Shown here: piece by piece, positions 21,680 through 37,735 of the stretch
Layout of the letters: every line of letters begins with the position of its first letter
Numbering within the stretch: position 1 is the first letter of the stretch
The notes under the pieces: generated by a model
Database searches by the model: none
Told to the model about the DNA's origin: nothing
The model's input: only the letters and a program-made list of their open reading frames with translations
NCBI RefSeq assembly: GCF_036960865.1
Contig: NZ_JBALWE010000013.1
Span: 5,599 to 69,598 of the forward strand
DNA length: 64,000 nucleotides
DNA from: Halopseudomonas sp.
GTDB taxonomy: Bacteria > Pseudomonadota > Gammaproteobacteria > Pseudomonadales > Pseudomonadaceae
Direction of reading: 5' to 3'
Translations under genes and position numbers: made by a program

Positions 21680-22942
21680 TCAGCCAACCCAGCGGCGAAA
21701 AATCAACGAGGTATTGATGCCGCCAAAAGCGAAGTTATTGCTCATGACGTAATCGCACTGCAAGGCCCGCGCCTCGCCGCGAATGTAATCCAAGGGCGCG
21801 CAGTCGGCATCGGACTCGTCCAGGTTGGCGGTGGCGTGGAACCACCCGGCGCGCATCATCTCGATGGCTACCCAGGCTTCCAGCGCGCCGCAGGCGCCCA
21901 AGGTGTGCCCGGTAAAGCTCTTGAACGCGCTGATCGGCGTGGTGCTGCCAAACACCGCGTGCGTGGCGGTGCTCTCGGCTACATCGCCACGGTCGGTCGC
22001 AGTGCCATGAGCGCTGACGTAGCCGATCTGTTCCGGCTGCAGGCAGGCATCGGCCAGGCCACTGCGGATCGCGCGCTCCATCATCTCGGCATCCGGCTGG
22101 GTGACGTGACGACCATCGCTGTTGGTGCCAAAGCCCATGACTTCGGCGTAGATGGTCGCGCCGCGCTCCAGTGCATGCTGCAGGTCTTCCAGAATCAGCG
22201 CACCGGCGCCTTCGCCCACCACCAGACCGTCGCGCGCGGCATCAAAGGGGCGTGGCGAGGTGTGCGGTGCGTCGTTGCGCGTGCTGGTGGCGAACAGGGT
22301 ATCGAATACCGCAGCTTCCGAGGCGGACAGCTCCTCGCAGCCGCCGGCGATCATCGCCTTCTGACGGCCGAAACGGATCGCCTCATAGGCGTAACCGATG
22401 CCCTGGCTACCCGAGGTGCAGGCGCTGGAGGTGGTATGAATGCGCCCGCGCACTCCGAGAAACACACCGATGTTCACCGCAGCGGTGTGCGCCATCATGC
22501 GAATGTAGGAATTGGCATTCAGTCCGTCGGTCGATTTGTTGATCAGCATATTGCCGAAATCAGCCACCGCATCCGGCTCACCGGCCGAGGCGCCATAGGC
22601 AATGCCCATGTCACCGCTGCTCACCAAAGGGTGCCCCAGCAGCCCGGCGTCAGCCAGCGCCAGCTCACTCGCGCGGGTCGCCATGCGCGCGCCGCGGCCC
22701 ATGCTCCGCATGGCACGGCGGGTGTACTGGGCGGGCAACTCGAAGGGCGCGACAGGGCCGCCCAGCCGGGTGTTCAGCCCCTCGTACTCAGCCCAGTCGT
22801 CCATATGCCGAATGCCGGTCTGCATTGCCTGCAGGTTCGCGGCGATGCTCGGCCAGTCATTGCCGATGGGAGAGAACCCCGCCATGCCGGTGATCACCAC
22901 GCGGCGCCCCAGACCATCGGCGCGCACTGCCTTGCCATCCAT
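21680..22942 (-). CDS. Beta-ketoacyl-ACP synthase (ApeR-like KS)
   Basis: The active-site region is TTSSACTSGSQGIG, and His motifs are HGTATDRGD and TGHTLGA. The ATG at 22942 shares 1 nt with the KR stop. Confidence 0.85.
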   Translation of the reverse strand: MDGKAVRADGLGRRVVITGMAGFSPIGNDWPSIAANLQAMQTGIRHMDDWAEYEGLNTRLGGPVAPFELPAQYTRRAMRSMGRGARMATRASELALADAGLLGHPLVSSGDMGIAYGASAGEPDAVADFGNMLINKSTDGLNANSYIRMMAHTAAVNIGVFLGVRGRIHTTSSACTSGSQGIGYAYEAIRFGRQKAMIAGGCEELSASEAAVFDTLFATSTRNDAPHTSPRPFDAARDGLVVGEGAGALILEDLQHALERGATIYAEVMGFGTNSDGRHVTQPDAEMMERAIRSGLADACLQPEQIGYVSAHGTATDRGDVAESTATHAVFGSTTPISAFKSFTGHTLGACGALEAWVAIEMMRAGWFHATANLDESDADCAPLDYIRGEARALQCDYVMSNNFAFGGINTSLIFRRWVG

Positions 22943-23667
22943 CAGCACATACCTCCATTGACCGACAGCACCTGCCGGGTGATATAGCCGGCCTCGGCCG
23001 AACACAAAAAGCTCACGGCGGCCGCTACTTCTTCCACGGTACCGGTGCGCTGCATGGGGATCGCCTTCATCGCCTCGCTGATGATCTGCTCATCCAGCAT
23101 TTCAGTCTCGATCAGCCCCGGCGCCACGCAATTGACCGTAATCTTGCGCTTGGCCAGCTCTACTGCCAACGCCTTGACCGCACCGATGAGCCCCGCCTTG
23201 CTGGCACTGTAATTGACCTGGCCACGGTTGCCCATCACCCCGGAGACCGACGACATGACGACGATGCGTCCGGCCTTGCGGCGGCGAATCATCGGCATCA
23301 TCACCGGCTTAAGCACGTTGTAGAAGCCGTCCAGATTGGTGTGAATGACCCGGTCCCAGTCATCATCACTGAGCGCCGGGAAGGCACCGTCAGCCGTCAC
23401 CCCGGCGTTGCAGACCACGCCGTAATAGGCGCCATGCGCCTCGACATCGGCTTCCAGTGCAGCGCAGGCGGCGGCCCGATCAGCCACATCGAAACACAGC
23501 ACCCGGGCATCTCGCCCCAGCGCGCGAATCTGCTCAGCCACCTGCTCGGCAGCGGCCTGCTGGCTGCGGCAATGCAGCACTACGTCAAAGCCGTCACGGG
23601 CCAGCCGCAAGGCGACGGCCTGGCCGATGCCGCGGCTGGAGCCGGTAATCAAGATGGTGTCGGTCAT
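22942..23667 (-). CDS. 3-oxoacyl-ACP reductase (FabG/ApeQ-like)
   Basis: ITGSSRGIG cofactor motif, NAG, and YSASKAG (YxxxK). Confidence 0.9.
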   Translation of the reverse strand: MTDTILITGSSRGIGQAVALRLARDGFDVVLHCRSQQAAAEQVAEQIRALGRDARVLCFDVADRAAACAALEADVEAHGAYYGVVCNAGVTADGAFPALSDDDWDRVIHTNLDGFYNVLKPVMMPMIRRRKAGRIVVMSSVSGVMGNRGQVNYSASKAGLIGAVKALAVELAKRKITVNCVAPGLIETEMLDEQIISEAMKAIPMQRTGTVEEVAAAVSFLCSAEAGYITRQVLSVNGGMC

Positions 23668-24140
23668 GGCATTTCTCCATTGCTCAGCGCGGCCAGCGCC
23701 TCGGCGGAATTGGGCTGGTAAACGTTCAGGGTGGCGCTGGCCAGCACCGCGCCCTGCTGATCCAGCACCTGGCCGCGGAAGGCGCCCAGGCCGTTGTCGG
23801 CACGAAAATCCAGAAACACCTCGATGCGCAGCGGCACATTCAAGGCAAAGTGATCAACGCTGGTCTGATAGCGACGCGAACCGAGCAGAAAGCCCACTGC
23901 CGGTAGCTCGCCCGCCTGCACCGCCTGCACGCCGGCCCAGGCTGCCACGGCCTGCGCCATCCACTCCAGCCCTACCCAGCCGGGAATGCCCTGCGCGGTG
24001 GCGAACAGATCGTCATCGCGGGGGCAAACCTCGGCGTACAGGTGGTCATTGTTGAACTCAAGCAGTTGATCCAGCAGGCACATACCTTCGGCGTGGGGCA
24101 CGTAGGGCGCGATCGGGCAGGGCGTGGTCAGCTCAACCAT
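23664..24140 (-). CDS. Hotdog-fold 3-hydroxyacyl-ACP dehydratase (ApeP-like)
   Basis: The start MVELTTPCPIAPYVPHAEGMCLLD contains the typical HxxxM/L hotdog His region. The gene lies between KS and KR. Confidence 0.7.
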   Translation of the reverse strand: MVELTTPCPIAPYVPHAEGMCLLDQLLEFNNDHLYAEVCPRDDDLFATAQGIPGWVGLEWMAQAVAAWAGVQAVQAGELPAVGFLLGSRRYQTSVDHFALNVPLRIEVFLDFRADNGLGAFRGQVLDQQGAVLASATLNVYQPNSAEALAALSNGEMP

Positions 24141-25326
24141 CGGTGCGCTCCAGCAGCAGGGCGGCGTTGTTGCCGCCAAAGGCGAAGGAGTTGCTCAGCG
24201 CGCGGCGTAGCGGCGCCGCCTCAGCGGTTGCCAGGCGAATCGGCGCCAGCGCCGAATCTATCACGCCGTCGTTGACCTGCGGCGGCAGACAGCCCTCGCG
24301 CAGCGCCAGCCAGCAGAAGGCCGCCTCCAGCGCGCCGCAGGCACCCAGGGTATGACCGGTCAGCGCTTTGGTCGAACTGCAGGGCGCCTGCTCGCCAAAC
24401 AGCTGATAGATGGCCTGCGCCTCCATGCTGTCGTTCTGCGCCGTGGCGGTGCCGTGCAAGTTGACGTAGTCGACTTGTGCGGCGCTGACACCGGCCATGT
24501 TAAGCGCAGCCTGCATCGCCGCCTGGGCGCCGCTGCCATCGGCCAGCGGCGCCGAAATGTGGTGCGCGTCGCTGCTTTCGCCATAACCGGCGAGCTGAAT
24601 ACCGCCGGGCTCGGGTGTCATCAGAAACAGCGCCGCCGCTTCGCCAATGTTGATGCCACGGCGATTGGGCGAGAACGGCAGGCTGGGCTGGTCACTGACC
24701 GCTTCCAGCGCGGCAAAGCCGTTCACCGTCAGCGCACAGAGACTGTCGGCGCCGCCCGCGATCACCGCATCGCAGAGCCCCAGCGCCAGCAAACGTCGAC
24801 CACTGGCCAACGCCCGGGCGCTGGAGCTGCACGCAGTCGACAGGGTGTACGCCGGGCCATCCAGGCCCAAGTGCGCCGCAACAAAGGCCGCAGGTGAACC
24901 TATCTCCTGGCGCTGATAGGCGAAGCTCTCCGGCCAGTCGCCGTGCTGCTGAAAATGCACCACGGCGGCCTCGCTTTCACCGATACCCGAGGTACTGGTG
25001 CCCAGCACCACGCCGATACGCGCCTGGGGTTGCCGCGCGCGCAGCGCAGCCAAGTCCGGCGCCAGTTGCTGCAGCGCGGCGGCCAGCAGTTGGTTGTTAC
25101 GCGAACGATGCTCGGCCGGCCAGCCATGCATGGGCGGCAGTTCGCCGGTAACCAGCCCCAGTGGCAGCGCTCGCCCGGGAGTGAAGCTATCAGTGACCGT
25201 CAGGCCCCGCTCACCGCTGAACAGCTTATGCGCGATAGCCGCCAGATTGTCGCCCAGCGAGCACAACAGCGCCGGCGTCGAAAGACGACAGGGCTGATCT
25301 TGCAGGGCATTCAGTAATTCGGGCAT
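24133..25326 (-). CDS. Beta-ketoacyl-ACP synthase (ApeO-like KS)
   Basis: Active-site Cys in LSTACSSSARAL; HGTATAQND; TGHTLGACGA. Confidence 0.85.
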   Translation of the reverse strand: MPELLNALQDQPCRLSTPALLCSLGDNLAAIAHKLFSGERGLTVTDSFTPGRALPLGLVTGELPPMHGWPAEHRSRNNQLLAAALQQLAPDLAALRARQPQARIGVVLGTSTSGIGESEAAVVHFQQHGDWPESFAYQRQEIGSPAAFVAAHLGLDGPAYTLSTACSSSARALASGRRLLALGLCDAVIAGGADSLCALTVNGFAALEAVSDQPSLPFSPNRRGINIGEAAALFLMTPEPGGIQLAGYGESSDAHHISAPLADGSGAQAAMQAALNMAGVSAAQVDYVNLHGTATAQNDSMEAQAIYQLFGEQAPCSSTKALTGHTLGACGALEAAFCWLALREGCLPPQVNDGVIDSALAPIRLATAEAAPLRRALSNSFAFGGNNAALLLERTDG

Positions 25327-25859
25327 GGCGTGGTGGTCCGCGCGGCATCGGCCACGGTGATGGTTAGCTGGTAGCCGGCGTCAAGGTCGTCAATCAGGCG
25401 GCAGTGGCCGTCTATTTTAACCTTGGCAATCAGTTGCTTGCGATAATAAATCGCACGCCGCTGCGGGCTGCCCTGCAGCGTCCATCGGCTGCCGGCAAAG
25501 GCCTGATGCAGAGCCTTGGCAGGCCACAGCGACCAGGCCAGGCGGCTACCCAGCCAGTCGGCATCAAAGGGCGGTTGCCATACCGCGGAGTGCATTTGTG
25601 CACCGCTGGCGTCGCGCTGCCAGCTGAGCAGCCGCTGCCCCTGCGGGCTGAGCAGCACCAGACGCAGGCTGTCGCTATCACGGCGCAGCACGCCGATCAT
25701 CACATGGGTTTGATCCCCATGGACAAAGCGCAGCTGCAGGGTTTGCGCGGGTGCCGGCGGCAGGGCCGCCAGATCCGGTGGCGGCGCTGGCGTTGGCGAC
25801 AGCAGCGCGCAGCCACTGAGCAACAGCAGTACCAGCAGCGCGGCGGGCAGCCGGATCAC
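25311..25859 (-). CDS. DUF3261-like lipoprotein (ApeN-like)
   Basis: GTG start with a GTGA overlap. The lipobox is LLLLSGC. Confidence 0.65.
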   Translation of the reverse strand: MIRLPAALLVLLLLSGCALLSPTPAPPPDLAALPPAPAQTLQLRFVHGDQTHVMIGVLRRDSDSLRLVLLSPQGQRLLSWQRDASGAQMHSAVWQPPFDADWLGSRLAWSLWPAKALHQAFAGSRWTLQGSPQRRAIYYRKQLIAKVKIDGHCRLIDDLDAGYQLTITVADAARTTTPCPNY

Positions 25860-27136
25860 GCTGGTGCCTGCGTCAGGTCAAAGGGGCTCTCGATACTGCT
25901 CTGCGCCAGCACATCCAGCCGTCTGCGGCTGGCCGCCACCAGTGGGTTGCTGGCATCCCAGGCATAACCGGCCAAGACCGCACTGATCATGCTGCGAATA
26001 CGCTCCGGCTGACGCTCATTGAAGATGATCCGCGGCAGACGGCCGTCATACCAGGCCAGTACGAACTCGCGGAAGGTATCCACGCCGGCGCGCAGTGGTT
26101 GTTCGAACGCGGTTTGCCAGTCGACCGTCTCACCTTGGAGCTGCCGCTGCACCAGCGGCGCCGCCAGCCAACCCGAATGCAGCGCGATAGTGACGCCCGA
26201 GGAAAACACCGGATCGAGAAACTCGCCGGCGTTGCCGAGCAGCGCAAAGCCCGGGCCGTGCAACTGCTTGACGGCAGCCGAGTACCCCTCCAAACGGCCG
26301 GTATCGCGCACCTGTACAGCGTTTTTCAGCAGTTCGGCGTAGCGCGGCTCCTGGCGCAACATGGCCCACAGGCGTTCGGCATCATCCAGACCCGCCTGCT
26401 CCAGGGTCGCGCGATCACCCACCACACCGACCGAGGCGCGGCCATCGCTGAAGGGGATCAGCCAGTACCAGACACCCGGCAGCTGAGGATGAATACCGAT
26501 GAGAATCTTGTTGCGATCGTAATCAGCGGTGTCGATACGGTCTTCCACATGCATGAACAGCGCGCAGCGCGACTCCAGTACTGACTCGCAGGCCAACCCG
26601 GTCAGCCGCGCCAGCACCCGGCCATAGCCACTGGCATCCAGCACGAAGCGCGCCTGCAATTGCTGCTCCTCGCCCTCCGCCGTGACCAGGCGGATCTGCG
26701 GATGCAGCGCATCGGGCGTAAAATCGGTTACCTTGCAGCCAAACAGCACATCGGCGCCCAGCGCCTGCGCGCCCTGAATCAGCCGCTGGTCAAAATCCGC
26801 GCGCGGCACCTGCCAGGTGGTACCGGGGCCGGGGCTGAACTTCTCGGTAAACTGGATCGCGGCCGTTTGATCGCGCCAGCAAAAGGCGGCGCCATCCTTG
26901 TACTGGAAGCCCCCGGCCTCGGCCGCCGCCAGCAGCCCGCACGCGTCAAGGTAATGCATGCACTGCGGTAACAGGCTCTCGCCAATCGAGAACCGCGGGA
27001 ACTGGCTCTGCTCCAGCACCCGCACCCGCAGGCCGGCACGCGCCAGCCAGGCTGCGGCGGCGGCCCCCGCCGGACCTGCACCGATAATGGCGACGTCAAC
27101 CTGTTCTACGCTCGACTCTGCCGTGGTGTTCTGCAT
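25856..27136 (-). CDS. FAD-dependent oxidoreductase with flavin-dependent-halogenase signature
   Basis: GAGPAG dinucleotide motif; FPRFSIGESLLP; an exact WxWxIP motif (WYWLIP, nt 26453-26470); GNAGEFLDPVFSSGV. The ATG at 27136 lies behind AGGGAG. Confidence 0.75.
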   Translation of the reverse strand: MQNTTAESSVEQVDVAIIGAGPAGAAAAAWLARAGLRVRVLEQSQFPRFSIGESLLPQCMHYLDACGLLAAAEAGGFQYKDGAAFCWRDQTAAIQFTEKFSPGPGTTWQVPRADFDQRLIQGAQALGADVLFGCKVTDFTPDALHPQIRLVTAEGEEQQLQARFVLDASGYGRVLARLTGLACESVLESRCALFMHVEDRIDTADYDRNKILIGIHPQLPGVWYWLIPFSDGRASVGVVGDRATLEQAGLDDAERLWAMLRQEPRYAELLKNAVQVRDTGRLEGYSAAVKQLHGPGFALLGNAGEFLDPVFSSGVTIALHSGWLAAPLVQRQLQGETVDWQTAFEQPLRAGVDTFREFVLAWYDGRLPRIIFNERQPERIRSMISAVLAGYAWDASNPLVAASRRRLDVLAQSSIESPFDLTQAPA

Positions 27137-27151: not shown

Positions 27152-29386
27152 CTAGTGTGAATGGCCGCACCCTTCAGCGCGGGCGAAGGGCACCAGGGCC
27201 CAGGTAAAGGCCAGACCCAACAGGCAGGTCAGCCCCAGAAAATGCAGCGCCGGGGTGGCGCTGAAGGCCAGCAAACCGAAGGCCAGCATGCTGGATGCGC
27301 AGGACAGGCTGACCGCCAGCCAGGCGGCCGCGCTATCCGGTTCCTGCGCGCTGAAAATACCGGCATCCAGACCAATCCCCAGCACCAGCAACAGGCCGAG
27401 CAAGTGGAACAGACCTATGCCGCCAGTCAGACTCAGACAGCCCAGCGTCAGCAGTACCGCCCCCAGCGGTGGCAGCAACGCGCGCCAGGCGTCGAGGCGC
27501 AGGCGCCAGACGAGCAACAGCACCAGCAGTGCCACGGCCACCGCCAGCCAGCTTGCCATGCTGTGGGCCAGGCGCGCCAGCTGCGCCGACAGCGCCGCCA
27601 CCCGGTCGTGATACAGCAGATCGTCCGCCGCAGCCAACTGCTGTAACGCCGCGACGCCAGCAGGGCTGGCCTCACCCAGCGCCACTAGCGCCAGCCAGTC
27701 GCCGCTGGCTTGCTGGCCCAGCCAGAGCGCGGCATCGGCCGCTCCTGCCGGGCTGTTCAACCATTGTGCCGGCTGCAGTAGTGGCGCTTGCTCCAGCGCT
27801 GCCAGTGCTTGGTGCTGCAGACGCTCGGGCAAGCCGCTGGCCGCACGCAACGCCGGCAGCGCCTGTTGATAACGCTCGCGCAGCAACCGCTGTGTCTGCT
27901 GCTGCCGGGCAAGCGACGGCAAATGCCGCGCCGCGTGGGTATAGGCCGACAGCTCGCCGCTCGCCTGCAACTGCTGCAAGGGCGCGTCCAGGCTTTCCAG
28001 CCGCTGCAGCAAAGCCTGCTCATCGGCGGCGCTGACCAGCAAGTAACGGCTGCCACCGGGTTGCAACAGCAACGTCTGCACTTGCTGTTGCTCGGCAATC
28101 AGCTGCGGTGGCGAAGGATTGAGCTGTTGCAGGCTGGCGCTGAACTGCACCCGGCTGATCGCCACCAGCGCCAGCAGCAGCAACAGCGCCAGCACCACCC
28201 ACGGCCAACGCTGGCCACGGCGTAGCCGCAGCGGTGCCAGCCGAGCAGCCGCTGCGGCGGTGGCAGGATGCGTCGCCAACGGCCAGTTGACCAGCCACAG
28301 ACGTACCGTCAGCCAGGCACCCAGCAGCCCCAACGCGGCAAAGCAGGCCATCTGACGCAGGCCCGGCATGGGCGTAATCAGCTGTACCAGATAAGCAACT
28401 AGGGTACTTACCAGCCCCAGCAGCAGAGCCGACCAGAAACGCCGGCCCGGTTGCTCGGCGACCAGCTGGCGCTGGCATTGCAAGTGCAGCGCATAGTCCA
28501 CGGCGATGCCGATAATGCTGACGCCGAACACCAGCGTGAGTAGATTGACCTGGCCAAACAGCAGGCCGGTCAGCGGCAGCGCCAGCAACAAGCCGCAGCC
28601 AATCGGTACCAGCAGGAGCTCCAGGGTACGCAAGCGACGAAACACCAGCCAGAACAACAACACCAGCCCCAGCAACGAGGCCAGCCCCAGGGTCGACATC
28701 TCGCGCTGCGCCTGCGCGGCACCAGCCGCGGCATGGAAGATCAGCCCGGAGCGCAATAACTGCGCCCGCGGCCACTGCGCTTGAAACGCTTCCAGGCTAG
28801 CTTGCAATTGCTGCTGCACCGCCAGTTGGTAGGGGCTGGCGCTGATCTCGCCGCTGACCAGTACCCATAACTGGCCATCGTGCTGCAGCGTCGGCAGGCC
28901 TTGGCGCAGACGCAAGGGGCCGTTGAAGCGCTCTTCCAGCCAGCTGTCGAGCAGGCCGAAGGGGTCACGCGTCAGGGTCTCGCTGCCGCCGGGCAGCAGC
29001 AAGCGGTTCAATGCACGGGCCGACCACGCTTGGCTCTCTGCCCCGCGCAGTTGGTCGCTGAGCAGGCTGTAACGGTAATCGGCCAGTTGCTGATCAGGCC
29101 GGTTTGCCGCTTGCGCCCGGCCCAGGCCGGCCGCCTGCAGATGCTGCTGCAGGGACTGCGCAGCCGCCAGGGGCGCCGGCCCGCCAACCAGCAGGACAAA
29201 ACGCTGTTCAAAGGCGCCGCCGAGTTGGCGATCAGCCTGTTGCAGATTGGCACCCTGGTCGCTGGCGGGGAGCAATGCGGTGATGCGCGTATCCCAGAAC
29301 TCGGCGTTACGCAGCTGGCTGACCAGCAGCAGCGCACAGGCCAGCAGCAGCGCAGCCCACAGCCAGGCCAGCGCGCGCCACTTCAA
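27152..29386 (-). CDS. MMPL/RND-like exporter (ApeM-like)
   Basis: 744 aa with two blocks of TM helices separated by large Gln/Leu-rich soluble loops. Only a TTG start is available, forming a TTGA overlap with the LolA-like stop. Confidence 0.75.
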   Translation of the reverse strand: MKWRALAWLWAALLLACALLLVSQLRNAEFWDTRITALLPASDQGANLQQADRQLGGAFEQRFVLLVGGPAPLAAAQSLQQHLQAAGLGRAQAANRPDQQLADYRYSLLSDQLRGAESQAWSARALNRLLLPGGSETLTRDPFGLLDSWLEERFNGPLRLRQGLPTLQHDGQLWVLVSGEISASPYQLAVQQQLQASLEAFQAQWPRAQLLRSGLIFHAAAGAAQAQREMSTLGLASLLGLVLLFWLVFRRLRTLELLLVPIGCGLLLALPLTGLLFGQVNLLTLVFGVSIIGIAVDYALHLQCQRQLVAEQPGRRFWSALLLGLVSTLVAYLVQLITPMPGLRQMACFAALGLLGAWLTVRLWLVNWPLATHPATAAAAARLAPLRLRRGQRWPWVVLALLLLLALVAISRVQFSASLQQLNPSPPQLIAEQQQVQTLLLQPGGSRYLLVSAADEQALLQRLESLDAPLQQLQASGELSAYTHAARHLPSLARQQQTQRLLRERYQQALPALRAASGLPERLQHQALAALEQAPLLQPAQWLNSPAGAADAALWLGQQASGDWLALVALGEASPAGVAALQQLAAADDLLYHDRVAALSAQLARLAHSMASWLAVAVALLVLLLVWRLRLDAWRALLPPLGAVLLTLGCLSLTGGIGLFHLLGLLLVLGIGLDAGIFSAQEPDSAAAWLAVSLSCASSMLAFGLLAFSATPALHFLGLTCLLGLAFTWALVPFARAEGCGHSH

Positions 29387-29928: not shown

Positions 29929-30368
29929 CAGCTGTTCCTCTGTTGCCAGGCGGCAATCTTCTCGCGCAGCACGGCGGGTGACTCAAAACGCATTTCCCGA
30001 TCCTCCACGCCCACCGCTACCTGCACCGTCCAGGCGCGATTGAGCCGCTTGCGTGTCTCGGCATCACGGATGGTGTAATCGATCTTCAGGCGGTTTTCCC
30101 ATTCACTGAGCCGCGCCTCGATGGCGATCTGCTGGGTAAATACCGCTGGCGCCGCGTAGCGCAGGCGCATGTCGATGACCGGCCAGCCGAAACCGGAGTC
30201 GCGCATCTGGTTGTAGTTGTAATCCAGCTCGTCGAGCAGCGCGCAGCGGGCGATTTCCAGGTAGCGCACGTAATGCCCGTGCCAGACGATCTGCATCATA
30301 TCCACATCGTGAAAGGGGATGGTCAGGCAGATTTCGGCACGCGGCAGCGGGTGTTCAGCAGGCGTCAT
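29928..30368 (-). CDS. 4HBT/YbgC-type acyl-CoA/ACP thioesterase (ApeK-like)
   Basis: IPFHDVDMMQIVWHGHYVRYLE carries the catalytic Asp of the hotdog 4HBT class. 146 aa. Confidence 0.8.
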   Translation of the reverse strand: MTPAEHPLPRAEICLTIPFHDVDMMQIVWHGHYVRYLEIARCALLDELDYNYNQMRDSGFGWPVIDMRLRYAAPAVFTQQIAIEARLSEWENRLKIDYTIRDAETRKRLNRAWTVQVAVGVEDREMRFESPAVLREKIAAWQQRNS

Positions 30369-31923
30369 AGAGGCTCCAGTGGCGTTGCAAAATCAGGCCG
30401 CACAGGTGGCGCAGGTCACTTTCCAGCGCACGGTCCTCAAACAAGGGGGCGACCTGCTCGCGGCACTCGGCGACAAACTCGGCCAACTGAGCCGGCAGTG
30501 GCGCGGAGTCGGGCAGGCTGCTGCGCTGCTCGACGCCCTGGCAGACAGCGTGCAGCATGGCCGCGGCGACCTGCTCGACCAGGGTCAGCACCCGCAATGC
30601 ATCCCGCGCCGCGATGGTGCCCATGCTGACCTTGTCCTGATTGTGACATTCAGTGGAGCGCGAGAACACACTGGCGGGCATGGTTAATTTGAGTGCTTCG
30701 GCGGTCCAGGCCGAGGCGCCGATCTGCACCGCCTTGTAACCGTGATTGAGCGGCGCGCGCGCGGCGCTGGCGCCACTGAGGTTGGCGGGTAGGCCGTGGC
30801 TGAAGCGAGTATCCACCAGCTGCGCCAATTGACGGTCGAGCAGATCGGCAAGATTAGCCACCGCCTGCTTCAAACTGTCCATGACAAAGGCCACATGGCC
30901 GCCGTAGAAGTGACCGCCGTGCATTACCTTGCCGCCCTCGACGTCGATCAGCGGGTTGTCGTTGGCGCTGTTCAGTTCGGTTTCCAGCAGTTGCCGCCAG
31001 AAAGGCAGCGCATCGGCCACAACACCGATGACGTGCGGCGCGCAGCGGGTGGAATAACGATCCTGCAGGCGGGGCGAGTTGCGCGGGGTGGCCGGCGCGT
31101 GCAGATCTTCGCGCAGCCGCGCGGCGACCTGCGCCTGGCCGGGATGCGGCTTGGCGCGAAACAGGGTCTCGTCAAAGTGATAGGGATTGCCATCCAGCGC
31201 ATACACGCTGAGCGCGGTGATCCGGGTACTGAGCTGCGCCAGATACTCGGTGCGCGCAAAGGCCTGCAGCGCCAGCGCGGTCATCACGGCGGTGCCGTTC
31301 ATCAGCGCCAGGCCTTCCTTGGGCTTGAGCCGGTAGGGGGTCAGGCCACGCTCGGCGAACACCTCGGCGGTGGCGCGGCGCTCACCCTCAACCCAGACCT
31401 CGCGCTCACCACAGAGCACCGCCGCCAGGTAGGACAGCGGCGTCAGATCGCCACTGGCACCCACCGAACCCTCCTCCGGAATGACCGGCAGCACATCCTG
31501 CTCCAGCAGCCAGGCCAGACGTTCCAACAAGTCCCAGCTAACCCCGGAATAGCCCTGACACAGCGATACCAGGCGCACCATGACCACCGCCCGCGACGCC
31601 TCAACCGAGAGCACCTGCCCCAGGCCGCAACCGTGGAAGGTATACAGGTGCTGCGGCAGCTCGCCCAGCACCTCGGCCGGCACCGCGCGGGTGCAGGAGT
31701 CGCCGTACCCGGTGGTGACGCCGTAGATCACGCCGTCTTCGGCCAGCAGTTGTTCAAGAAAGCGGTTGCCGGCGCTGATGCGCTCGCGGAACGCCGGCTC
31801 GGCCGACAGCGCCACGCGGCAGTCGCGCCGGGCTACGGCCAGCACCTGCTCGATGCTCAGCGGGCTGCCGTCGAGGTGCAGGCAGGCGGGCGCGGTGTCA
31901 GTGCGGGTGTTTGTCAGACTCAT
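30355..31923 (-). CDS. Aromatic amino acid ammonia-lyase (HAL/TAL/PAL family, MIO-dependent)
   Basis: The MIO-forming triad Ala-Ser-Gly lies in GSVGASGDLTPLSYLA (nt 31450-31458). YGVTTGYGD and NDNPL are present. Start at ATG 31923. Confidence 0.85.
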   Translation of the reverse strand: MSLTNTRTDTAPACLHLDGSPLSIEQVLAVARRDCRVALSAEPAFRERISAGNRFLEQLLAEDGVIYGVTTGYGDSCTRAVPAEVLGELPQHLYTFHGCGLGQVLSVEASRAVVMVRLVSLCQGYSGVSWDLLERLAWLLEQDVLPVIPEEGSVGASGDLTPLSYLAAVLCGEREVWVEGERRATAEVFAERGLTPYRLKPKEGLALMNGTAVMTALALQAFARTEYLAQLSTRITALSVYALDGNPYHFDETLFRAKPHPGQAQVAARLREDLHAPATPRNSPRLQDRYSTRCAPHVIGVVADALPFWRQLLETELNSANDNPLIDVEGGKVMHGGHFYGGHVAFVMDSLKQAVANLADLLDRQLAQLVDTRFSHGLPANLSGASAARAPLNHGYKAVQIGASAWTAEALKLTMPASVFSRSTECHNQDKVSMGTIAARDALRVLTLVEQVAAAMLHAVCQGVEQRSSLPDSAPLPAQLAEFVAECREQVAPLFEDRALESDLRHLCGLILQRHWSLYDAC

Positions 31924-32839
31924 GTTTCTCAGCCAACCAGAAAGGGAAAAAGTTGTACCACTGCAGCGGCTGCTCGCGCACCCAGCCGGCGAGGGTATCG
32001 GCATAACGCTGCATGGCAACGGCCAACCATTGCTCGCGCGCCTTGCGCGGCAACTGGCGGGTGTCATCGAAAGCGGCAAAACGGATGCGGAAGCGCTCGC
32101 CGACGCGCACGCACGACAGGGTGTATAGCGGGCAGCGCAGCAAGGCGGCGAGCCAGAACGGACCCTCCGGGAAGGTCGCCGGAGCGCCGAGAAAGTTCAG
32201 CGTGCGCTGCCGGCCGCCATTGATCGGCGGCCGGTCGGCGGCAATCACCACGAAGCCACCCGCAGCAATGCGCGCATCAAGCATTTGCGCGGTGGCCGGG
32301 GTGATTTCAGTCACTTCGAGAATCTGTGGCCTTGGCCGTCCCGTCACGCGCTCCAGCAGCAGGTTGAACTTGCCAGCGTTGCGCGTATGCATGAGCACCA
32401 GCAGATCCAGCTGCGGATGCCGCTCGGCCATGGCGTTGGCGATGTCCAGATTACCGTGATGCGCCACCAGTACCAGCCCGCCCTGGCCGCTCTCCAGCGC
32501 CTGCGCAAAGCGCGCAACGCCGTCGCCGCACAGGTGTGCGTCGGTAACTGGCGCGCTCCAGCCTGCGACCTTGTCCATCAGCGTATTACCGAAGCTCATA
32601 AAGTGCCGGAAGCTGCGCCAGTGCAGCTGAACCGGCCGCCTTGCCAGCGCCGGCTCCAGCCGCCGCCAATAGTCGCAGGACGCCCGCCTTGCGGTGCCGT
32701 GGCTGAGGAAATACCAGAGCATCACCGGCCAGAGCACCAGCTGAAAGGGCCAGCGGCCCAGATGACGCTGAATCCACACCAGCAGCTGCATACCCAGCAG
32801 GCTGCCGCGCTCGCCGATCTGCGCCCAATGCTGGCTCAT
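31898..32839 (-). CDS. LpxL/HtrB-family lipid acyltransferase-like protein
   Basis: 313 aa with an N-terminal TM segment. It contains HHGNLD (HX4D-like acyltransferase motif). ATGA overlap with the GT2 stop. Confidence 0.65.
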   Translation of the reverse strand: MSQHWAQIGERGSLLGMQLLVWIQRHLGRWPFQLVLWPVMLWYFLSHGTARRASCDYWRRLEPALARRPVQLHWRSFRHFMSFGNTLMDKVAGWSAPVTDAHLCGDGVARFAQALESGQGGLVLVAHHGNLDIANAMAERHPQLDLLVLMHTRNAGKFNLLLERVTGRPRPQILEVTEITPATAQMLDARIAAGGFVVIAADRPPINGGRQRTLNFLGAPATFPEGPFWLAALLRCPLYTLSCVRVGERFRIRFAAFDDTRQLPRKAREQWLAVAMQRYADTLAGWVREQPLQWYNFFPFWLAEKHESDKHPH

Positions 32840-33576
32840 GCGCGCGTCCTGCCGCGCAGTAGCCAGCCGGGCGCACGGCGCAACATGCCAAAAAACAGCC
32901 GCGCATGCATGGCCGAGATCTGCAGGTTATCGCGCCACAGGTTGAAGTGGCTGACGCCGCCCTCGGGGTAATGCACATGCACCGGCAGGTTGATCACTGC
33001 CCCGCCGCGCCAGTGCCAGCGCACCAGCACCTCGGTATCGAAGGCCATGCGGTTACCGCAGGGCTGCGTTGCCAGCAGGCGATTGACCGCTGCCAACGGG
33101 TAGATGCGCGCGCCACACATGGAGTCGCGGATAGCCAGAGACAGGGTGTTGATCCAGACCCAGATGTGGGTCGCGTAGCGGCCATAAAAACGCAGCCGCG
33201 AGACGCTTTCATCATAATGCGGATAGCCGATTACCAGGGCCTGCGGCTGTGCCTGCATGGCCGCCAGAAAGCCCGGCAGATCGGCGACCGCGTGCTGGCC
33301 GTCGGCGTCTACCTGCAGGGCATGACTGTAGCCAAGCCGCTCGGCGTGGGCTAAGCCGGCCCGCACGGCGGCCCCCTTGCCCTGGTTGTGCGGCAACCGC
33401 AGCAAGTGATGACCGGCGACTTGCAGCTGATCCAGCACGCTGGCGCACTCGGCGTCGCAGCCGTCGTCAACCAGCAGTACCGGCAAGCCCAGCTGCTGCA
33501 GCTGGGCACAGACCGCTGCGATGGTCGCCGGATGGTTGTAGACCGGAATCAGCGCGCAGACTGCAGGCGTCTTCAT
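32836..33576 (-). CDS. Family 2 glycosyltransferase (ApeJ-like)
   Basis: LIPVYNHPATI, LLVDDGCD and QVDADGQH (DxD-type) motifs. Start at ATG 33576 with an ATGA overlap. Confidence 0.8.
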   Translation of the reverse strand: MKTPAVCALIPVYNHPATIAAVCAQLQQLGLPVLLVDDGCDAECASVLDQLQVAGHHLLRLPHNQGKGAAVRAGLAHAERLGYSHALQVDADGQHAVADLPGFLAAMQAQPQALVIGYPHYDESVSRLRFYGRYATHIWVWINTLSLAIRDSMCGARIYPLAAVNRLLATQPCGNRMAFDTEVLVRWHWRGGAVINLPVHVHYPEGGVSHFNLWRDNLQISAMHARLFFGMLRRAPGWLLRGRTRA

Positions 33577-35255
33577 GCCTGCGCACCTGCAGCAGGCAGA
33601 AAGCGCGCGGTGGCCGTGCAGTGACGGCCGGCCGCGGATTGCAGCGTAAAGGTCACCGCATCCGGCTTGCGCGCCAACGTGAGCTGAAAACGCATGCCGG
33701 GGCGCAGCATGGTCTGAAATTTCAGGCGCTCCAGCCGGTGAAACTGCCCCAACGGACCAAAACTCTGCTCCGCAGTCTGCAGCGCCCACCGAATCATCAC
33801 CACGCCCGGCACCAGGGCGAAACTGTTGAAGTGACCGCGCAGATAAATCAGCCGTTCAGGCACTTCAAAATGCTGGCAGCAATGCTCGGCATCCTGCCAC
33901 TGCTCACCCAGCCAGCGCGGCAGGCGGTCGTCGTCCAGATCGGCGAACAGCCGCGCGATCAGCGCACGGTCCAGCTTGCCTTGCGCGTTGCTCGGCAGTT
34001 GCTCGACAAAACGCCAGTAGCGCGGCAGCGCGACGCGCTCCAACTGATCGGCCAGCAAAGTACGCAGGCGCTCAGTCAGCGCACGGCGCGCCGCGTGATC
34101 CTGCGGCACGCCGTCTGCGGGCATGGCAACCACTACGCCAAGCCGGCCATCGGCGCGGCCCGGATCCACGCAGCGCGCCGCCGTTATCTCAGGCACCTGC
34201 AGCAGGCGCTGTTCAATCTGCTCCAGCGACACCCGTTTGCCGGCCACCTTGGCGACCCGGTCTCCGCGACCCAACAAAACAAAGCCGCCATCCTGTTGTG
34301 CCACCCTGTCGGCCTGCTGCCAGCCCAGCGCCGGTTGCTCCAGAAACGGTGAATGCAGCAGCAAGGCATCGTCCACTATCTGCCAGTCGACACTCGGCAG
34401 CGCCTGCCAGACGCCCGATGCGCTCTGTTGCCGCTGGGCGATGCCGCCGGTTTCGGTACTACCGTAAATTTCGATTACCGGCGCCTGCAGCAAGGCCTCC
34501 GCTTGCTGGGCGTGGGCCAGCTGCAAGGGTGCTCCGGAGGAGAAAATGCGCCGTGGCGAACCGGCCGCGGCCCAATCAATGTGATCTGGCAGGCGCGACA
34601 GCGGCGCCGGCGAACTGACCACGACCGCTGCCAGCGCGGCGCTCTGCGCCTCACTCAGACGTGCTGCCAGCACCTCGGGGTAAAGGGCGTCGCGGCCGCA
34701 AAAGGGCACGCCGGCGCAGAGCGGATGCAGCACGCCGGCCAGCAAGCCGTAGATGTGCTGGTGGCTGACCTGCGCAATCACCGCCGCGCCGGCCAGCGGC
34801 CAGAGCCGCGCATGCACCGCCAACTCGCTGTCGAGCTGATCAAAACGCTTGCTCAGGCGCAGCGGCAGCCCTGTGGAGCCCGAGGTGTAGAGCGCCAGCG
34901 CGATGGCTTGCGGGGCGAGCGGTGACAGTTGCGCGGGTTCAAGCTCGGCACTGTCCGGGGCGCTGGCTGGCAGTTGTCCGTCCAACTCGGCGGCGATGGC
35001 CTGCAGGGTCTCCGGTCGATCATCGGCCGGTAGCACGGCGACCCGTCCGCTATCCCAGAGCGCCAAGAGCGCAGCGGTAAACTGTAGTGGATCAGGCTGA
35101 TGCAGCAGCCATTGGCCGCCGGGCTTGTCGGCCAACCAGTGCAACCAGCGCCGCCGCAGCGTCAGCAACGCGGGCCCTTGGCACCAGTGCGCGGGTAACT
35201 CGGCGGCAGCCGTTGGTTGCAGCCAGGGCCGCTCGATCAAGGGTTGAAAACTCAT
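33573..35255 (-). CDS. AMP-dependent ligase/adenylating enzyme fused to a C-terminal hotdog dehydratase-like domain (ApeH + ApeI-like)
   Basis: Adenylation cores are LYTSGSTGLP and YGSTETGG. The C-terminal roughly 130 aa (IYLRGHFNSFALVPGVVMI...) resembles the FabZ/FabA His region. ATGA overlaps occur at both ends. Confidence 0.75.
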   Translation of the reverse strand: MSFQPLIERPWLQPTAAAELPAHWCQGPALLTLRRRWLHWLADKPGGQWLLHQPDPLQFTAALLALWDSGRVAVLPADDRPETLQAIAAELDGQLPASAPDSAELEPAQLSPLAPQAIALALYTSGSTGLPLRLSKRFDQLDSELAVHARLWPLAGAAVIAQVSHQHIYGLLAGVLHPLCAGVPFCGRDALYPEVLAARLSEAQSAALAAVVVSSPAPLSRLPDHIDWAAAGSPRRIFSSGAPLQLAHAQQAEALLQAPVIEIYGSTETGGIAQRQQSASGVWQALPSVDWQIVDDALLLHSPFLEQPALGWQQADRVAQQDGGFVLLGRGDRVAKVAGKRVSLEQIEQRLLQVPEITAARCVDPGRADGRLGVVVAMPADGVPQDHAARRALTERLRTLLADQLERVALPRYWRFVEQLPSNAQGKLDRALIARLFADLDDDRLPRWLGEQWQDAEHCCQHFEVPERLIYLRGHFNSFALVPGVVMIRWALQTAEQSFGPLGQFHRLERLKFQTMLRPGMRFQLTLARKPDAVTFTLQSAAGRHCTATARFLPAAGAQA

Positions 35256-35788
35256 GTCAGCCCCCGGCGCAGGCGGCGACGGCAGAGCCACTCGACGGCG
35301 AACATCAGCCCCATCAGCAGGTAGCTGATGCAACCGTTATACAGCGTCCAGGTGGCGAGATCGGCGTACACCGCGGTCCAGGCCGCGATACTGCCGTTGA
35401 CGATGAAAAAGCCACACCAGGCCCAGGTGACCTTGCGCGTGTACCGCACCCCCTCAGGGGGCAAGTCAGGTTCCTGCAGGCGCGCCAGCCGCTCGATGAT
35501 CGGCATGCCGTGCAGCAGGCTGCCGGCAAATAACGCCAGCATGATCAGGCTGACCGCCACCGGGTAGGCACGCATGCCCAGCTCGGCCTTGCCGAGCAAA
35601 CCGAGCAGCAGTAATACGGCGGCGGCCAGCAGCGCCAATGGCCGTGCCTGTGGCAGACGCCACACCAGCAAGCCCGCCCCCACCAGCAACAGCCAGCCGC
35701 TGGGCACCTGCCCGTGCAGCGCATAGACCGCAAAGGGCCAGGCGATCAGGGCGAGCATCCCTGCCCACTTCAGCATCCGATAAACCAT
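35252..35788 (-). CDS. Conserved polytopic membrane protein (ApeG-like)
   Basis: 178 aa with 5-6 hydrophobic helices. It sits between the ACPs and the AMP-ligase. Confidence 0.6.
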   Translation of the reverse strand: MVYRMLKWAGMLALIAWPFAVYALHGQVPSGWLLLVGAGLLVWRLPQARPLALLAAAVLLLLGLLGKAELGMRAYPVAVSLIMLALFAGSLLHGMPIIERLARLQEPDLPPEGVRYTRKVTWAWCGFFIVNGSIAAWTAVYADLATWTLYNGCISYLLMGLMFAVEWLCRRRLRRGLT

Positions 35789-35790
35789 TG

Positions 35791-36051
35791 TCAGAGCTGC
35801 ATGATGCGGTCAACGGCGTTGACTACGTCGTCGATGGTGCGCACCGACTTGAAGTCTTCAGGGTTCAGGCGTTTGCCGGTGTAGCGCTTGAGTTCGACAA
35901 CCAGGTCAACGGCATCAATGCTGTCGATATCCAGGTCTTCGTAGAGGCGCGCTTCGGGGGTAATCTCATCCGCGTCCAGCTCGAACAGCTCCACCAGAGT
36001 CTTGCGCACCTGCGCGAACGTCGCCTCGCGGCTTGGTGATTCAGTTGACAC
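35791..36051 (-). CDS. Acyl carrier protein (second of tandem pair)
   Basis: LDIDSIDAVDL is the phosphopantetheine-Ser motif. A GTG start at 36051 behind GAGGAA is preferred over the upstream start in the track. Confidence 0.8.
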   Translation of the reverse strand: MSTESPSREATFAQVRKTLVELFELDADEITPEARLYEDLDIDSIDAVDLVVELKRYTGKRLNPEDFKSVRTIDDVVNAVDRIMQL

Positions 36052-36310
36052 GGCGTTCCTCCACGAGCGCTTGCAGAGCATTCAGGCTGGTGAAGTGCTG
36101 GCGGGTTTCTTCGGCCTCGGCATCCAGTTTGATGCCGTACTGCTTTTGCAGGGCCAAACCGATTTCCAGCGCGTCGATGGAATCCAAGCCCAGGCCTTCG
36201 CCAAACAGCGGCGCATCGGGCTCGATATCGTCAGGGGTGATGTCTTCGAGCTCAAGCGTTTCGATAATCATCCGCTTCAATTCCAGCGACAAATCTTGGG
36301 TTTCGCTCAT
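36041..36310 (-). CDS. Acyl carrier protein (first of tandem pair)
   Basis: LGLDSIDALEI motif. ATG at 36310 (MSETQDLSLELKRMI...). Confidence 0.85.
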   Translation of the reverse strand: MSETQDLSLELKRMIIETLELEDITPDDIEPDAPLFGEGLGLDSIDALEIGLALQKQYGIKLDAEAEETRQHFTSLNALQALVEERRVN

Positions 36311-37091
36311 GACTGAACTGCTCCAGTTCCTTATTGAAATAGTCACTCAACCACCGGGTCAAGTGTCTGGCCTGCTGTCCTGCAGGTTGTGTTTCGTCCC
36401 TGTTGACCGCGACATCATCCAGCACCCGCAGGTGCATCTGAATCCGACTCGGCGGGATATGATACCAAGGCTCGCCCTTGGTCAGGGTAGTGGGCGTGCA
36501 GCTAATCAGTACCGGTGTTATCGCAGTATGCGTGCGCAGCGCGATGTTGGCGCCGCCGCGGCGAAACTTGACGGCCCGCTGCGGCGAGGTACGCGTGCCC
36601 TCGGGGAACAGAATCAACGACTTGCCCTGTGCCAGGCTCCGTTGCGCCGCCGCCAGCACCGCCTCTGGCTCGCTGTTGGTGATGTACCCGGCCATGCGAA
36701 TCGGGCCCCGGGTAAACGGGTTGCGCGCCAGCGCGCCATTGACGATGCAGTCGGCGGCACCCGTGAAGGCCACCAGATAAATCACGTCGATCAAAGACGG
36801 GTGATTGGCCAGCACCAGCAGCCCCGGACGCTGCAGCTTTTCCAACCCCTCAATGCGGTAGTCCGCCACACCCAGCACCTTCATCAGGCCGATAAAGGCG
36901 CGAAAACTGCATTGGATCAACCTGCGTGCAGCCTGCTGGCGACGCTGCGGATCGCGCACCAGCAACCACAGCAATGGCGCCGCGAGCAGGCCCAGCAGCG
37001 CGCCACCCAAGCCGAAGGCGGCAAACGACAACGCTGTGCCAAAGCCACGCCAGAGTCGATTGAGTTTGGCGCTCACGCCAGGCTCCAGCAT
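36252..37091 (-). CDS. PlsC-type lysophospholipid / glycerol-phosphate acyltransferase (ApeD-like)
   Basis: NHPSLIDV (HX4D) and FPEGTR motifs. The start is ATG 37091, or alternatively GTG 37076 with a GTGA overlap. The 3' end overlaps the first ACP by 59 nt. Confidence 0.75.
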   Translation of the reverse strand: MLEPGVSAKLNRLWRGFGTALSFAAFGLGGALLGLLAAPLLWLLVRDPQRRQQAARRLIQCSFRAFIGLMKVLGVADYRIEGLEKLQRPGLLVLANHPSLIDVIYLVAFTGAADCIVNGALARNPFTRGPIRMAGYITNSEPEAVLAAAQRSLAQGKSLILFPEGTRTSPQRAVKFRRGGANIALRTHTAITPVLISCTPTTLTKGEPWYHIPPSRIQMHLRVLDDVAVNRDETQPAGQQARHLTRWLSDYFNKELEQFSHERNPRFVAGIEADDYRNA

Positions 37092-37735
37092 TGCCGCGAC
37101 TGCAACTCGCCTCCGCGAGCCAGCCAGCGCGCGACATCCAGCGGTGCCGGTTCGCCGGGTACCGCCGCAGCGGATGCCAGCAACGGCCGACCTTTTTCGC
37201 GCGACAGCCGCAGCGCCACACAGGCGGCCGCTTCGGGGCCCACACTCTGCTGCCGATAGGCCTCGGGCAGGTCGCTGTCGGAGAACACCGCCAATACCGC
37301 CGCGTGCCCTTCCAGCAGATAGCCTGCGGCCTCCACTAGCATGGCGTCCAGCTCGTGGCCGCACGCCGCCAGCGCCTGCATCGATCGGGTGTTCTTGCGG
37401 GCGATGGAGTGCACGCCCAGCACGGCGTTGTGCACCGACATGGAAAATTTGGCGGGAGAGAGGGGTTGTTGCTCGGCCAGCGCCTGCAACATCGCCAGCG
37501 AACTTTTGACGTCACCGTGCCGAGAGGCGTGCACCACCGGCAGGCTGTGCTCGGGATCGAGCAGGCTGAGCGCATCACAGACCGCGCGGCCGGTGCCGTC
37601 CAGGCGCCTGCGCAGCATGGCCGGCAGGGGCGGCTCAGGGCCCTGCCGCTGGCTCAGGTCATGCCGGCTATCCAGCGCAAAATCCATTTTCTCGGCACTC
37701 CAGGCCAGCCAGTCTTCCAGCAACAGCTTCATCAT
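37073..37735 (-). CDS. KS-like chain-length-factor protein lacking the full KS fold (ApeC-like)
   Basis: 220 aa. FSMSVHNAVLG takes the place of a KS active-site region. It is the first gene of the cluster. Confidence 0.6.
   Translation of the reverse strand: MMKLLLEDWLAWSAEKMDFALDSRHDLSQRQGPEPPLPAMLRRRLDGTGRAVCDALSLLDPEHSLPVVHASRHGDVKSSLAMLQALAEQQPLSPAKFSMSVHNAVLGVHSIARKNTRSMQALAACGHELDAMLVEAAGYLLEGHAAVLAVFSDSDLPEAYRQQSVGPEAAACVALRLSREKGRPLLASAAAVPGEPAPLDVARWLARGGELQSRQCWSLA

Follow-up and report, generated by a model that had tools for sequence, protein, structure and literature searches.

A predicted aryl-polyene lipid operon with an ammonia-lyase and a halogenase-type gene in Halopseudomonas sp.

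Gene content of the ape-type cluster

A 64,000-nucleotide (nt) stretch of contig NZ_JBALWE010000013.1 of Halopseudomonas sp. (assembly GCF_036960865.1, positions 5,599 to 69,598 of the forward strand), called the window below, contains 18 open reading frames (ORFs), g1 to g18, which all lie on the minus strand and run in one direction from position 37735 to position 21680. Several of the longest ORFs were too long at the 5' end, and the coordinates given here use starts refined from the gene calls of Halopseudomonas sabulinigri. Fifteen of the 17 gene junctions overlap, by 1 to 59 nt, and the remaining two are gaps of +2 and +15 nt; because of these overlaps, a chance arrangement was discounted and the genes were regarded as a tightly coupled operon. 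A sequence-only reading of the same DNA had proposed an aryl-polyene (APE) type II polyketide synthase (PKS) cluster of 18 co-directional, mostly overlapping genes. That arrangement was confirmed, and each of the listed gene functions was recovered with Pfam and NCBIfam, the exporter g12 only softly; the inventory held for the 18 genes but had missed a conserved 19th, orf151 (21175..21630, minus strand). The locus very probably represents a complete aryl-polyene-lipid (APE/APEL) biosynthesis and export operon, belonging to a widespread subtype that has its own ammonia-lyase and halogenase-type enzyme.

The annotated ape region of Escherichia coli CFT073 (locus L083, positions 33728-48749) was the reference for the E. 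coli comparison, and structures were assigned as sequence matches to Protein Data Bank (PDB) entries. All core genes were collinear with apeC to apeR of CFT073, at 27 to 60% identity. The first gene, g1 (37073..37735, 220 amino acids [aa]), encodes an ApeC-like chain-length factor (CLF), a truncated ketosynthase (KS; Pfam Ketoacyl-synt_2, E = 3e-46), which is 33% identical to the CFT073 CLF and matches ApeC of Xenorhabdus doucetiae (6QSP_B, E = 5e-18) and its Acinetobacter baumannii counterpart (7F28_A, E = 1e-11). Its partner, the ApeO ketosynthase g15 (24133..25326, 397 aa; PRK09185, 485 bits, above cutoff), matches the ApeO chains of the same structures (6QSP_A, E = 8e-105; 7F28_B, E = 1e-80) and is 49% identical to the CFT073 protein, while g18 (21680..22942, 420 aa; PRK09116, 688 bits, above cutoff) encodes ApeR, a FabB-like second ketosynthase with matches to 4EWG (E = 3e-157) and to A. 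baumannii ApeR (7F27, E = 9e-153). The ApeQ ketoreductase (FabG2) is g17 (22942..23667, 241 aa; TIGR01831, 387 bits, above cutoff; 7CAW, E = 3e-107), 60% identical to its CFT073 homolog, and the ApeP dehydratase is g16 (23664..24140, 158 aa; Pfam ApeP-like, E = 1e-17). Two consecutive genes with PP-binding domains encode acyl carrier proteins (ACPs): the ApeE-like starter ACP g3 (36041..36310, 89 aa; PRK09184, 103 bits, above cutoff; 9LS6_A, E = 4e-29; 60% identity to CFT073 ApeE) and the ApeF-like second ACP g4 (35791..36051, 86 aa; PRK05350, 122 bits, above cutoff; 55% identity to CFT073 ApeF).

In g6 (33573..35255, 560 aa), the aryl-acid adenylating and ACP-loading enzyme ApeH is fused to an ApeI-like hotdog dehydratase. 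The protein contains AMP-binding, AMP-binding_C, and ApeI-like domains; E. coli ApeH, to which it is 33% identical, aligns only with residues 45-443, and residues 464-527 match the ApeI structure 6QSR_A (E = 2e-6), a match that accompanies an ApeI-like domain score just below the cutoff (27.6 versus 28.5 bits). The core set given by Grammbitter et al., namely, KS apeO/R, ACP apeE/F, CLF apeC, dehydratases apeI/P, ketoreductase apeQ, and transporter apeM, is complete in this cluster. A domain search of the 19 genes with Pfam and NCBIfam gave no enoyl reductase, no methyltransferase domain was detected in the cluster or its flanks, and tblastn with the E. coli and Vibrio vulnificus homologs of ApeA and ApeB as queries gave no match in the window. 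The sequence-only reading had made its assignment depend on similarity of the KS, CLF, and ACP set to ape genes, and this similarity was found (6QSP, 7F28, and 9LS6). Judged by collinearity with apeC to apeR and by these matches to solved Ape proteins, the cluster belongs to the ape (aryl polyene) type of type II PKS/lipid clusters.

The predicted lipid assembly and export genes also keep the CFT073 order, with counterparts of ApeD, ApeJ, ApeK, ApeG, ApeL, ApeM, and ApeN in g2, g7 plus g8, g10, g5, g11, g12, and g14, respectively. The GTG-initiated g2 (36252..37076, 274 aa) encodes an ApeD-like lysophospholipid (PlsC-type) acyltransferase (Pfam Acyltransferase, E = 1e-15; 45% identity to CFT073 ApeD); g5 (35252..35788, 178 aa) encodes an ApeG-like small integral membrane protein with no Pfam match and 59% identity to CFT073 ApeG over 104 aa; and g10 (29928..30368, 146 aa; 4HBT_2) encodes an ApeK-like hotdog thioesterase (51% identity to CFT073 ApeK). 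The GT2 glycosyltransferase g7 (32836..33576, 246 aa; Pfam Glycos_transf_2) and the LpxL/Lip_A-type acyltransferase g8 (31898..32839, 313 aa; Pfam Lip_A_acyltrans) align with the N- and C-terminal halves, respectively, of the single E. coli ApeJ (52% identity at L083 42868-42161 and 34% at L083 42151-41243), and in V. vulnificus both halves are contained in one 569-aa ApeJ protein. Because of these alignments, g8 was interpreted as one half of a split ApeJ without an additional function, so that the separate LpxL-like activity proposed in the sequence-only reading was abandoned. The identification of g8 as ApeA was also ruled out, E. coli ApeA being a 129-aa lipoprotein.

The export genes comprise g11 (29383..29928, 181 aa), which encodes ApeL, a LolA-like periplasmic carrier with a signal peptide (LolA_3, E = 1.6e-8; 26 to 28% identity to the E. 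coli and V. vulnificus proteins); g12 (27152..29386, 744 aa), the predicted ApeM exporter of the RND/MMPL type; and g14 (25311..25859), which encodes ApeN, a DUF3261 lipoprotein with the lipobox LSGC (E = 5e-19), in the same slot as the DUF3261 gene of CFT073. The exporter is the one soft assignment among the predicted functions: g12 has no Pfam match, and its weak NCBIfam matches to HpnN (E = 2e-7) and MMPL (E = 4e-5) are both below cutoff, while its alignment with the genes annotated as MMPL in the CFT073 and V. vulnificus clusters gives 31 to 33% identity across about 700 aa.

Distribution of the layout and comparison with named systems

Two further genes are interspersed among these. Between the ApeJ and ApeK counterparts lies g9 (30355..31923, 522 aa; Lyase_aromatic, E = 2e-162), a predicted aromatic amino-acid ammonia-lyase of the 4-methylideneimidazole-5-one (MIO) type, and between g12 and g14 lies g13 (25856..27136, 426 aa; Trp_halogenase and FAD_binding_3), a flavin-dependent halogenase-type protein. 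The sequence-only reading had noted the lyase, the flavoprotein, the ligase-dehydratase fusion, and the lack of a methyltransferase, all of which are real, and had considered the additions non-canonical. An alignment of g13 homologs was scanned against one genome per species, and the best 80 loci were compared by tblastn with the 18 window proteins. Relatives of g13 were present in at least 594 species genomes (594 of 600 candidate stretches), and 71 of the 80 best loci were embedded among APE genes, most of them in the layout of the window; the commonest order, in Ape letters, was D E F G H[-I] J-N J-C lyase K L M Hal N O P Q R. What looked like gaps at L and N in related loci were LolA_3 and DUF3261 proteins that had diverged. 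Of the 62 loci in which the ApeJ-ApeK slot was visible, 43 had the lyase and 19 did not.

The full layout was found in Halomonadaceae, Shewanella, Pseudoalteromonas, Rheinheimera, Acinetobacter nosocomialis, Acinetobacter calcoaceticus, Stutzerimonas, Pseudomonas agarici, Pseudomonas frederiksbergensis, Pseudomonas monachiensis, Collimonas, Iodobacter, Corallococcus (Myxococcota), and a Verrucomicrobiaceae metagenome-assembled genome (MAG). In many loci the ApeH-ApeI fusion appeared as a single high-scoring segment pair over g6 residues about 45-556; fused genes occurred in Halomonadaceae, Cupriavidus, Acinetobacter, Pseudomonas, Corallococcus, Collimonas, and others, and separate apeH and apeI genes in Shewanella, Pseudoalteromonas, Vibrio, and Alteromonas. 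An ApeB-type methyltransferase was present in 2 of the 80 best halogenase-bearing loci, and an unrelated class I methyltransferase in a few further loci. Since the same order recurs across Gammaproteobacteria, Betaproteobacteria, Myxococcota, and a Verrucomicrobiaceae MAG, these features are not unusual: a lyase, a halogenase-type gene, the fusion, and no methyltransferase make up the usual layout of a subtype with a very wide distribution.

Two papers place an ammonia-lyase among the genes of APE Vf-type clusters, and one of them calls it a "characteristic" APE gene. According to Johnston et al., initiation, attachment, and head-group tailoring differ by genus, and a genome-mining catalogue by Girard et al. 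lists variants of APE clusters from marine Pseudomonadaceae, Halopseudomonas included, as chemically uncharacterised. Homologs of g13 (52 to 54% identity) were also seen outside complete ape clusters, in Cupriavidus (loci L015 and L017), Paraburkholderia (L036 and L042), and Neisseria (L071), where no other APE gene, or only a ketoreductase-like gene, lay within 10 kb.

A near-identical cluster is found in H. sabulinigri, where all 18 genes recur together with the 151-aa ORF downstream and, upstream, the divergent response-regulator/HATPase pair; the H. sabulinigri lyase is 96% identical to g9, and Halopseudomonas flavoproteins are 88 to 94% identical to g13. The clusters of E. coli CFT073 and X. 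doucetiae share the homologs of apeC to apeR in order and presumably the logic of lipid assembly and export. Compared with these, the window cluster lacks the ApeA lipoprotein and the ApeB S-adenosylmethionine-dependent methyltransferase; compared with E. coli, it has ApeH and ApeI fused and ApeJ split into a GT2 protein and an acyltransferase, and it contains the g9 lyase, the g13 flavoprotein, and orf151, which CFT073 does not have. For the E. coli type, the presumed starter is 4-hydroxybenzoate made by UbiC.

Acinetobacter loci (A. nosocomialis L045, A. calcoaceticus L072, and others) have the order D E F G H-I J-N J-C lyase K (L) M Hal (N) O P Q R, with fused ApeH-I, an orf151 homolog after apeR, and 30 to 68% identity to the window genes. 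They add an Sfp-type 4'-phosphopantetheinyl transferase gene downstream, which the window cluster lacks; such genes lie directly downstream of the clusters of A. nosocomialis (L045:15931-16587) and Glaciimonas (L080:15908-16726). The construct name "ApeH-Nt" in papers on A. baumannii implies a fusion in that species as well, and the A. baumannii structural papers searched treat 4-hydroxybenzoate as the starter and contain no mention of the lyase or the flavoprotein.

The V. vulnificus locus L082 was used as a proxy for the APE Vf family. Its lyase likewise occupies the ApeJ-ApeK slot (64% identity to g9), and it has a halogenase-type flavoprotein with the same motifs as g13 (50% identity). It differs from the window in that apeH and apeI are two genes, ApeJ is one fused protein, and the flavoprotein gene lies in a divergently transcribed operon with apeA and an apeB-type methyltransferase gene. 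These three genes lie upstream of apeC both in V. vulnificus (L082:1052-3823) and in Vibrio plantisponsor (L066:8484-11215). A mutual exclusion of halogenase and methyltransferase was ruled out as a general rule, both being present in the two Vibrio loci and in a Kofleriaceae MAG (L078).

Comparison with the xanthomonadin and flexirubin clusters upheld the ape assignment, in that gene order and domains fit the ape type and not the pig or flx type. The xanthomonadin (Xanthomonas pig) system shares with the window a type II PKS for an aryl polyene and a halogenase gene; xanthomonadin-type clusters usually have such a gene, and brominated products are known. The flexirubin system of Bacteroidota shares a type II PKS for an aryl polyene and a start by a tyrosine ammonia-lyase (TAL), and chlorinated or methylated variants are known. 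A domain search of the 19 genes and flanks gave neither a XanB2-type chorismatase nor the dialkylresorcinol genes DarA and DarB; the DarB model scored 21.7 bits on g18 against a cutoff of 550, and scores for the FlxA and FlxB equivalog models were likewise below cutoff.

The ammonia-lyase, the flavoprotein, and the predicted product

The MIO-forming Ala-Ser-Gly triad of g9 lies at residue 156. In the cited rule, the diagnostic position is Glu in histidine ammonia-lyases (HALs) and Gln in phenylalanine ammonia-lyases (PALs) and TALs. The diagnostic motif of g9 is N-Q-D, as in Rhodobacter TAL (RsTAL, 2O6Y) and Taxus phenylalanine aminomutase, whereas that of HALs is Q-E-D. The selectivity switch described by Watts is Phe-Leu in PALs, His-Leu in TALs, and Ser-His in HALs; in all 48 APE-linked lyases extracted, it reads Phe-His or Tyr-His, followed by Gly-Cys/Val/Ile-Gly. 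Histidine ammonia-lyase, the best-scoring NCBIfam name for g9, was ruled out by the N-Q-D motif, the Phe-His switch, and the sub-cutoff hutH score. In alignment, the invariant switch His falls on His93 of SgTAM, a tyrosine-specific aminomutase in which this residue binds the phenol, and this favors tyrosine as the substrate of g9, a prediction that appears fairly probable. APEs and flexirubins that have been characterised carry 4-hydroxyphenyl head groups, and flexirubin biosynthesis begins with a TAL and activation of 4-coumarate. In A. baumannii, ApeE can be loaded by ApeH in vitro with either p-coumarate or 4-hydroxybenzoate, and p-coumaroyl-ApeE is the first elongation product of 4-hydroxybenzoyl-ApeE, so that the lyase would be a second entry to the same pathway, a role that fits its patchy loss among close relatives, for example in Chromohalobacter.

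The solved structure closest to g13 is 3NIX (E = 2e-100), deposited as a "flavoprotein/dehydrogenase" without an assigned activity; its source is presumably Cytophaga, a flexirubin-producing genus. The next PDB matches, Bmp2, ChlB4, PltA, CndH, and CmlS, are all FADH2-dependent halogenases, most of which act on substrates tethered to carrier proteins, and among characterised relatives g13 is nearest, by these matches, to the carrier-protein-dependent halogenases. The protein retains all hallmarks of flavin halogenases, namely, GAGPAG, the catalytic Lys81 (GFQYKDGAAF), WYWLIP, and FLDPVFSSG, and the Lys, WxWxIP, and FxDPxFSxG elements were invariant in 82 to 83 g13 homologs, that of V. vulnificus included. 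WxWxIP is thought to prevent mono-oxygenation. The invariant elements argue for genuine halogenase chemistry, most simply on an ApeE-bound phenol ortho to the hydroxyl. The NCBIfam CmlS model scored 134 bits on g13 against a cutoff of 900, and because this is far below the cutoff no equivalog assignment was possible.

Gene identity and order are observed, and every step of the pathway proposed here is drawn from homology. The lyase g9 would deaminate L-tyrosine to p-coumarate, and the adenylation half of g6 (ApeH) would activate this aryl acid and load it directly onto the starter ACP g3 (ApeE). Extension with malonyl units would be carried out by g15:g1 (ApeO:ApeC) and g18 (ApeR), reduction by g17 (ApeQ), and dehydration by g16 (ApeP) and the ApeI domain of g6, without enoyl reduction, to give an ACP-bound 4-hydroxyphenyl-polyene. 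The flavoprotein g13 would probably chlorinate or brominate the ACP-tethered phenol ortho to the hydroxyl, in place of the ApeB C-methylation of E. coli and Xenorhabdus. The later steps, transferred from work on Xenorhabdus APEL, would comprise construction of the acylated glycerophosphate part by g4 (ApeF) and g2 (ApeD), addition of a sugar by the GT2 protein g7, esterification of the polyene to the sugar by g8 (the other half of the split ApeJ), and editing or release by the thioesterase g10 (ApeK). The lipid would then be moved to the outer membrane by ApeG, ApeM, ApeL, and ApeN (g5, g12, g11, and g14), perhaps with orf151, and would act there as an antioxidant pigment. The predicted product is likely a yellow outer-membrane aryl-polyene lipid made from tyrosine-derived p-coumarate, and its ring halogenation is possible.

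Several observations weigh against parts of this proposal. The Vibrio clusters hold the g13-type gene beside apeA and an apeB-type methyltransferase gene, and the Vibrio fischeri APE product is reportedly dimethylated and not halogenated; should the V. fischeri cluster contain this flavoprotein too, halogenation may not occur, or may be conditional or minor. No halogenated product of this cluster type was found in the literature searched. An enzyme that does not halogenate the pigment, being silent, acting on another substrate, or catalyzing another flavin-dependent step, would leave an unsubstituted 4-hydroxyphenyl-polyene lipid, and the lack of an assigned activity for 3NIX is in keeping with this reading, which deserves serious weight even if it falls somewhat short of an even chance. 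It would, however, make the strict retention of the Lys, WxWxIP, and FxDPxFSxG elements in 82 to 83 homologs from very distant phyla hard to explain; furthermore, the characterised PDB neighbors apart from 3NIX are all true halogenases, and halogenated aryl polyenes exist among the xanthomonadins and chlorinated flexirubins. The evidence on whether g13 really halogenates the pigment is about evenly balanced. It is improbable that the starter differs because g9 is not a TAL, whether as a PAL that supplies a cinnamoyl starter, with g13 modifying a phenyl head group, or as an enzyme for another aromatic amino acid. Its tyrosine specificity is predicted from a Phe-His switch unlike the His-Leu of characterised TALs, and the first switch residue, Phe or Tyr in this group, is PAL-like. 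In addition, no NCBIfam model for HAL, PAL, TAL, or aminomutases reached its cutoff on g9, neither the TAL models FlxA (321 versus 700) and BagA (408 versus 1000) nor hutH TIGR01225 (417 versus 539). By these scores the enzyme, which is of the PAL/TAL type and would probably behave as a TAL, stands outside the characterised TAL equivalogs, as outside every other characterised equivalog. On the other side stand the invariant adjacent His, with its counterpart in SgTAM, the 4-hydroxyphenyl head groups of characterised APEs and flexirubins, and the requirement of phenol-type halogenases for an activated ring.

The lyase may also be dispensable, an optional module for starter supply. Otherwise collinear clusters with the halogenase-type gene and no lyase were found in the closely related Halomonadaceae Chromohalobacter (L005-L008) and Salinicola (L016), in Cupriavidus (L035, L038, and L043), and at L018, L027, and L081. 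The suggestion comes from the Chromohalobacter ApeH proteins, which are about as similar to g6 (46 to 49% identity) as those of most lyase-bearing Halomonadaceae (45 to 46%; L002, 56%); the identity for Salinicola is 41%. A search of the literature for a characterised lyase of the g9 clade (RmXAL/FjTAL) yielded nothing usable. Least probable by far is a new, non-canonical ape variant that arose in this lineage by insertion of the lyase and halogenase genes and fusion of two others. The differences are real relative to E. coli CFT073 alone, but both supposed insertions and the fusion recur in the same order in Gammaproteobacteria, Betaproteobacteria, Myxococcota, and a Verrucomicrobiaceae MAG, and the ammonia-lyase is counted in the literature as characteristic of APE clusters.

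The proposed tyrosine-derived, halogenated product can be extended from the locus to the subtype. It is a tentative and rather doubtful proposal that the methyltransferase-less subtype with lyase and halogenase genes makes, in hundreds of Gammaproteobacteria, Betaproteobacteria, and Myxococcota (Acinetobacter, Pseudomonas, Shewanella, and Halomonas among them), chlorinated or brominated 4-hydroxyphenyl-polyene outer-membrane lipids. A carrier-protein-dependent halogenase would act on intermediates tethered to ApeE, and the starter would be supplied by a new class of TAL with the Phe/Tyr-His switch. If it were true, halogenated APE lipids would form a class of envelope lipids that is widespread outside Xanthomonas and Bacteroidota and has so far gone unreported there, and, provided that the flavoprotein is active, many Gram-negative bacteria, pathogens included, would carry halogenated polyene lipids as decoration of the outer membrane. 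APE clusters have been described as the most widely distributed family of biosynthetic gene clusters in bacteria, and they have been implicated in oxidative-stress resistance and biofilm formation. The present locus adds little by itself, being a textbook example in a marine member of a genus in which APE clusters were already noted; the interest lies in two enzymes conserved in hundreds of species, the Phe/Tyr-His lyase and the halogenase-type flavoprotein, and in the product of clusters without a methyltransferase, as a property of the whole subtype. In the literature searched, neither was found to have an experimentally assigned role.

orf151 and the cluster borders

The 19th cluster member, orf151, encodes a conserved secreted protein of unknown function without a Pfam match; it begins 49 nt downstream of apeR and has a signal peptide. 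Homologs with 33 to 65% identity directly follow apeR in at least 26 distant loci, and Lee et al. noted an unknown gene beside apeR in A. baumannii. No direct similarity between orf151 and ApeA was found, and its identification as ApeA was set aside. ApeA-like genes adjoin orf151 homologs in several loci, and in P. frederiksbergensis (L075:16081-16884) a 267-aa fusion combines an ApeA-like lipoprotein as its N-terminal half with an orf151-like C-terminal half. The orf151 protein probably belongs to the envelope-localization part of the system.

A candidate sigma-70-like promoter, TTGACC-16-TAGAAT, lies on the minus strand at 37770..37797, 35 nt upstream of apeC; it is a consensus match only, agreeing at 10 of 12 positions, with 0.2 such matches expected in shuffled sequence. 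Scanning the window for tRNA genes and Rfam families gave no hits, nor did a search for terminators downstream of the cluster. Divergently upstream, positions 37783-40343 of the plus strand encode a response regulator that contains a long TPR region, together with an HATPase_c protein, a pair that is kept in H. sabulinigri and that could regulate the ape cluster. Further upstream, at 40642-44040 (minus strand), is the gene for an 1132-aa protein with an Amt membrane domain followed by PAS-PAS-GGDEF-EAL, also present in H. sabulinigri (L001:1-1201); from its domains it looks like an ammonium-sensing protein of cyclic di-GMP turnover. Just past orf151 lies a gene for an NAD(P)H-binding protein (20449-21120, plus strand), and positions 19139-20383 contain a MerR-family regulator gene (plus strand) next to a gene for a DUF533/TerB-like protein (minus strand); together these genes form the downstream border of the ape cluster. 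The G+C content of the ape cluster, 0.65 to 0.67, is slightly above that of its flanks, and elsewhere in the window positions 1-2000 and 12001-14000 have values of 0.50 and 0.55, respectively, compared with about 0.60 to 0.66 in the remainder.

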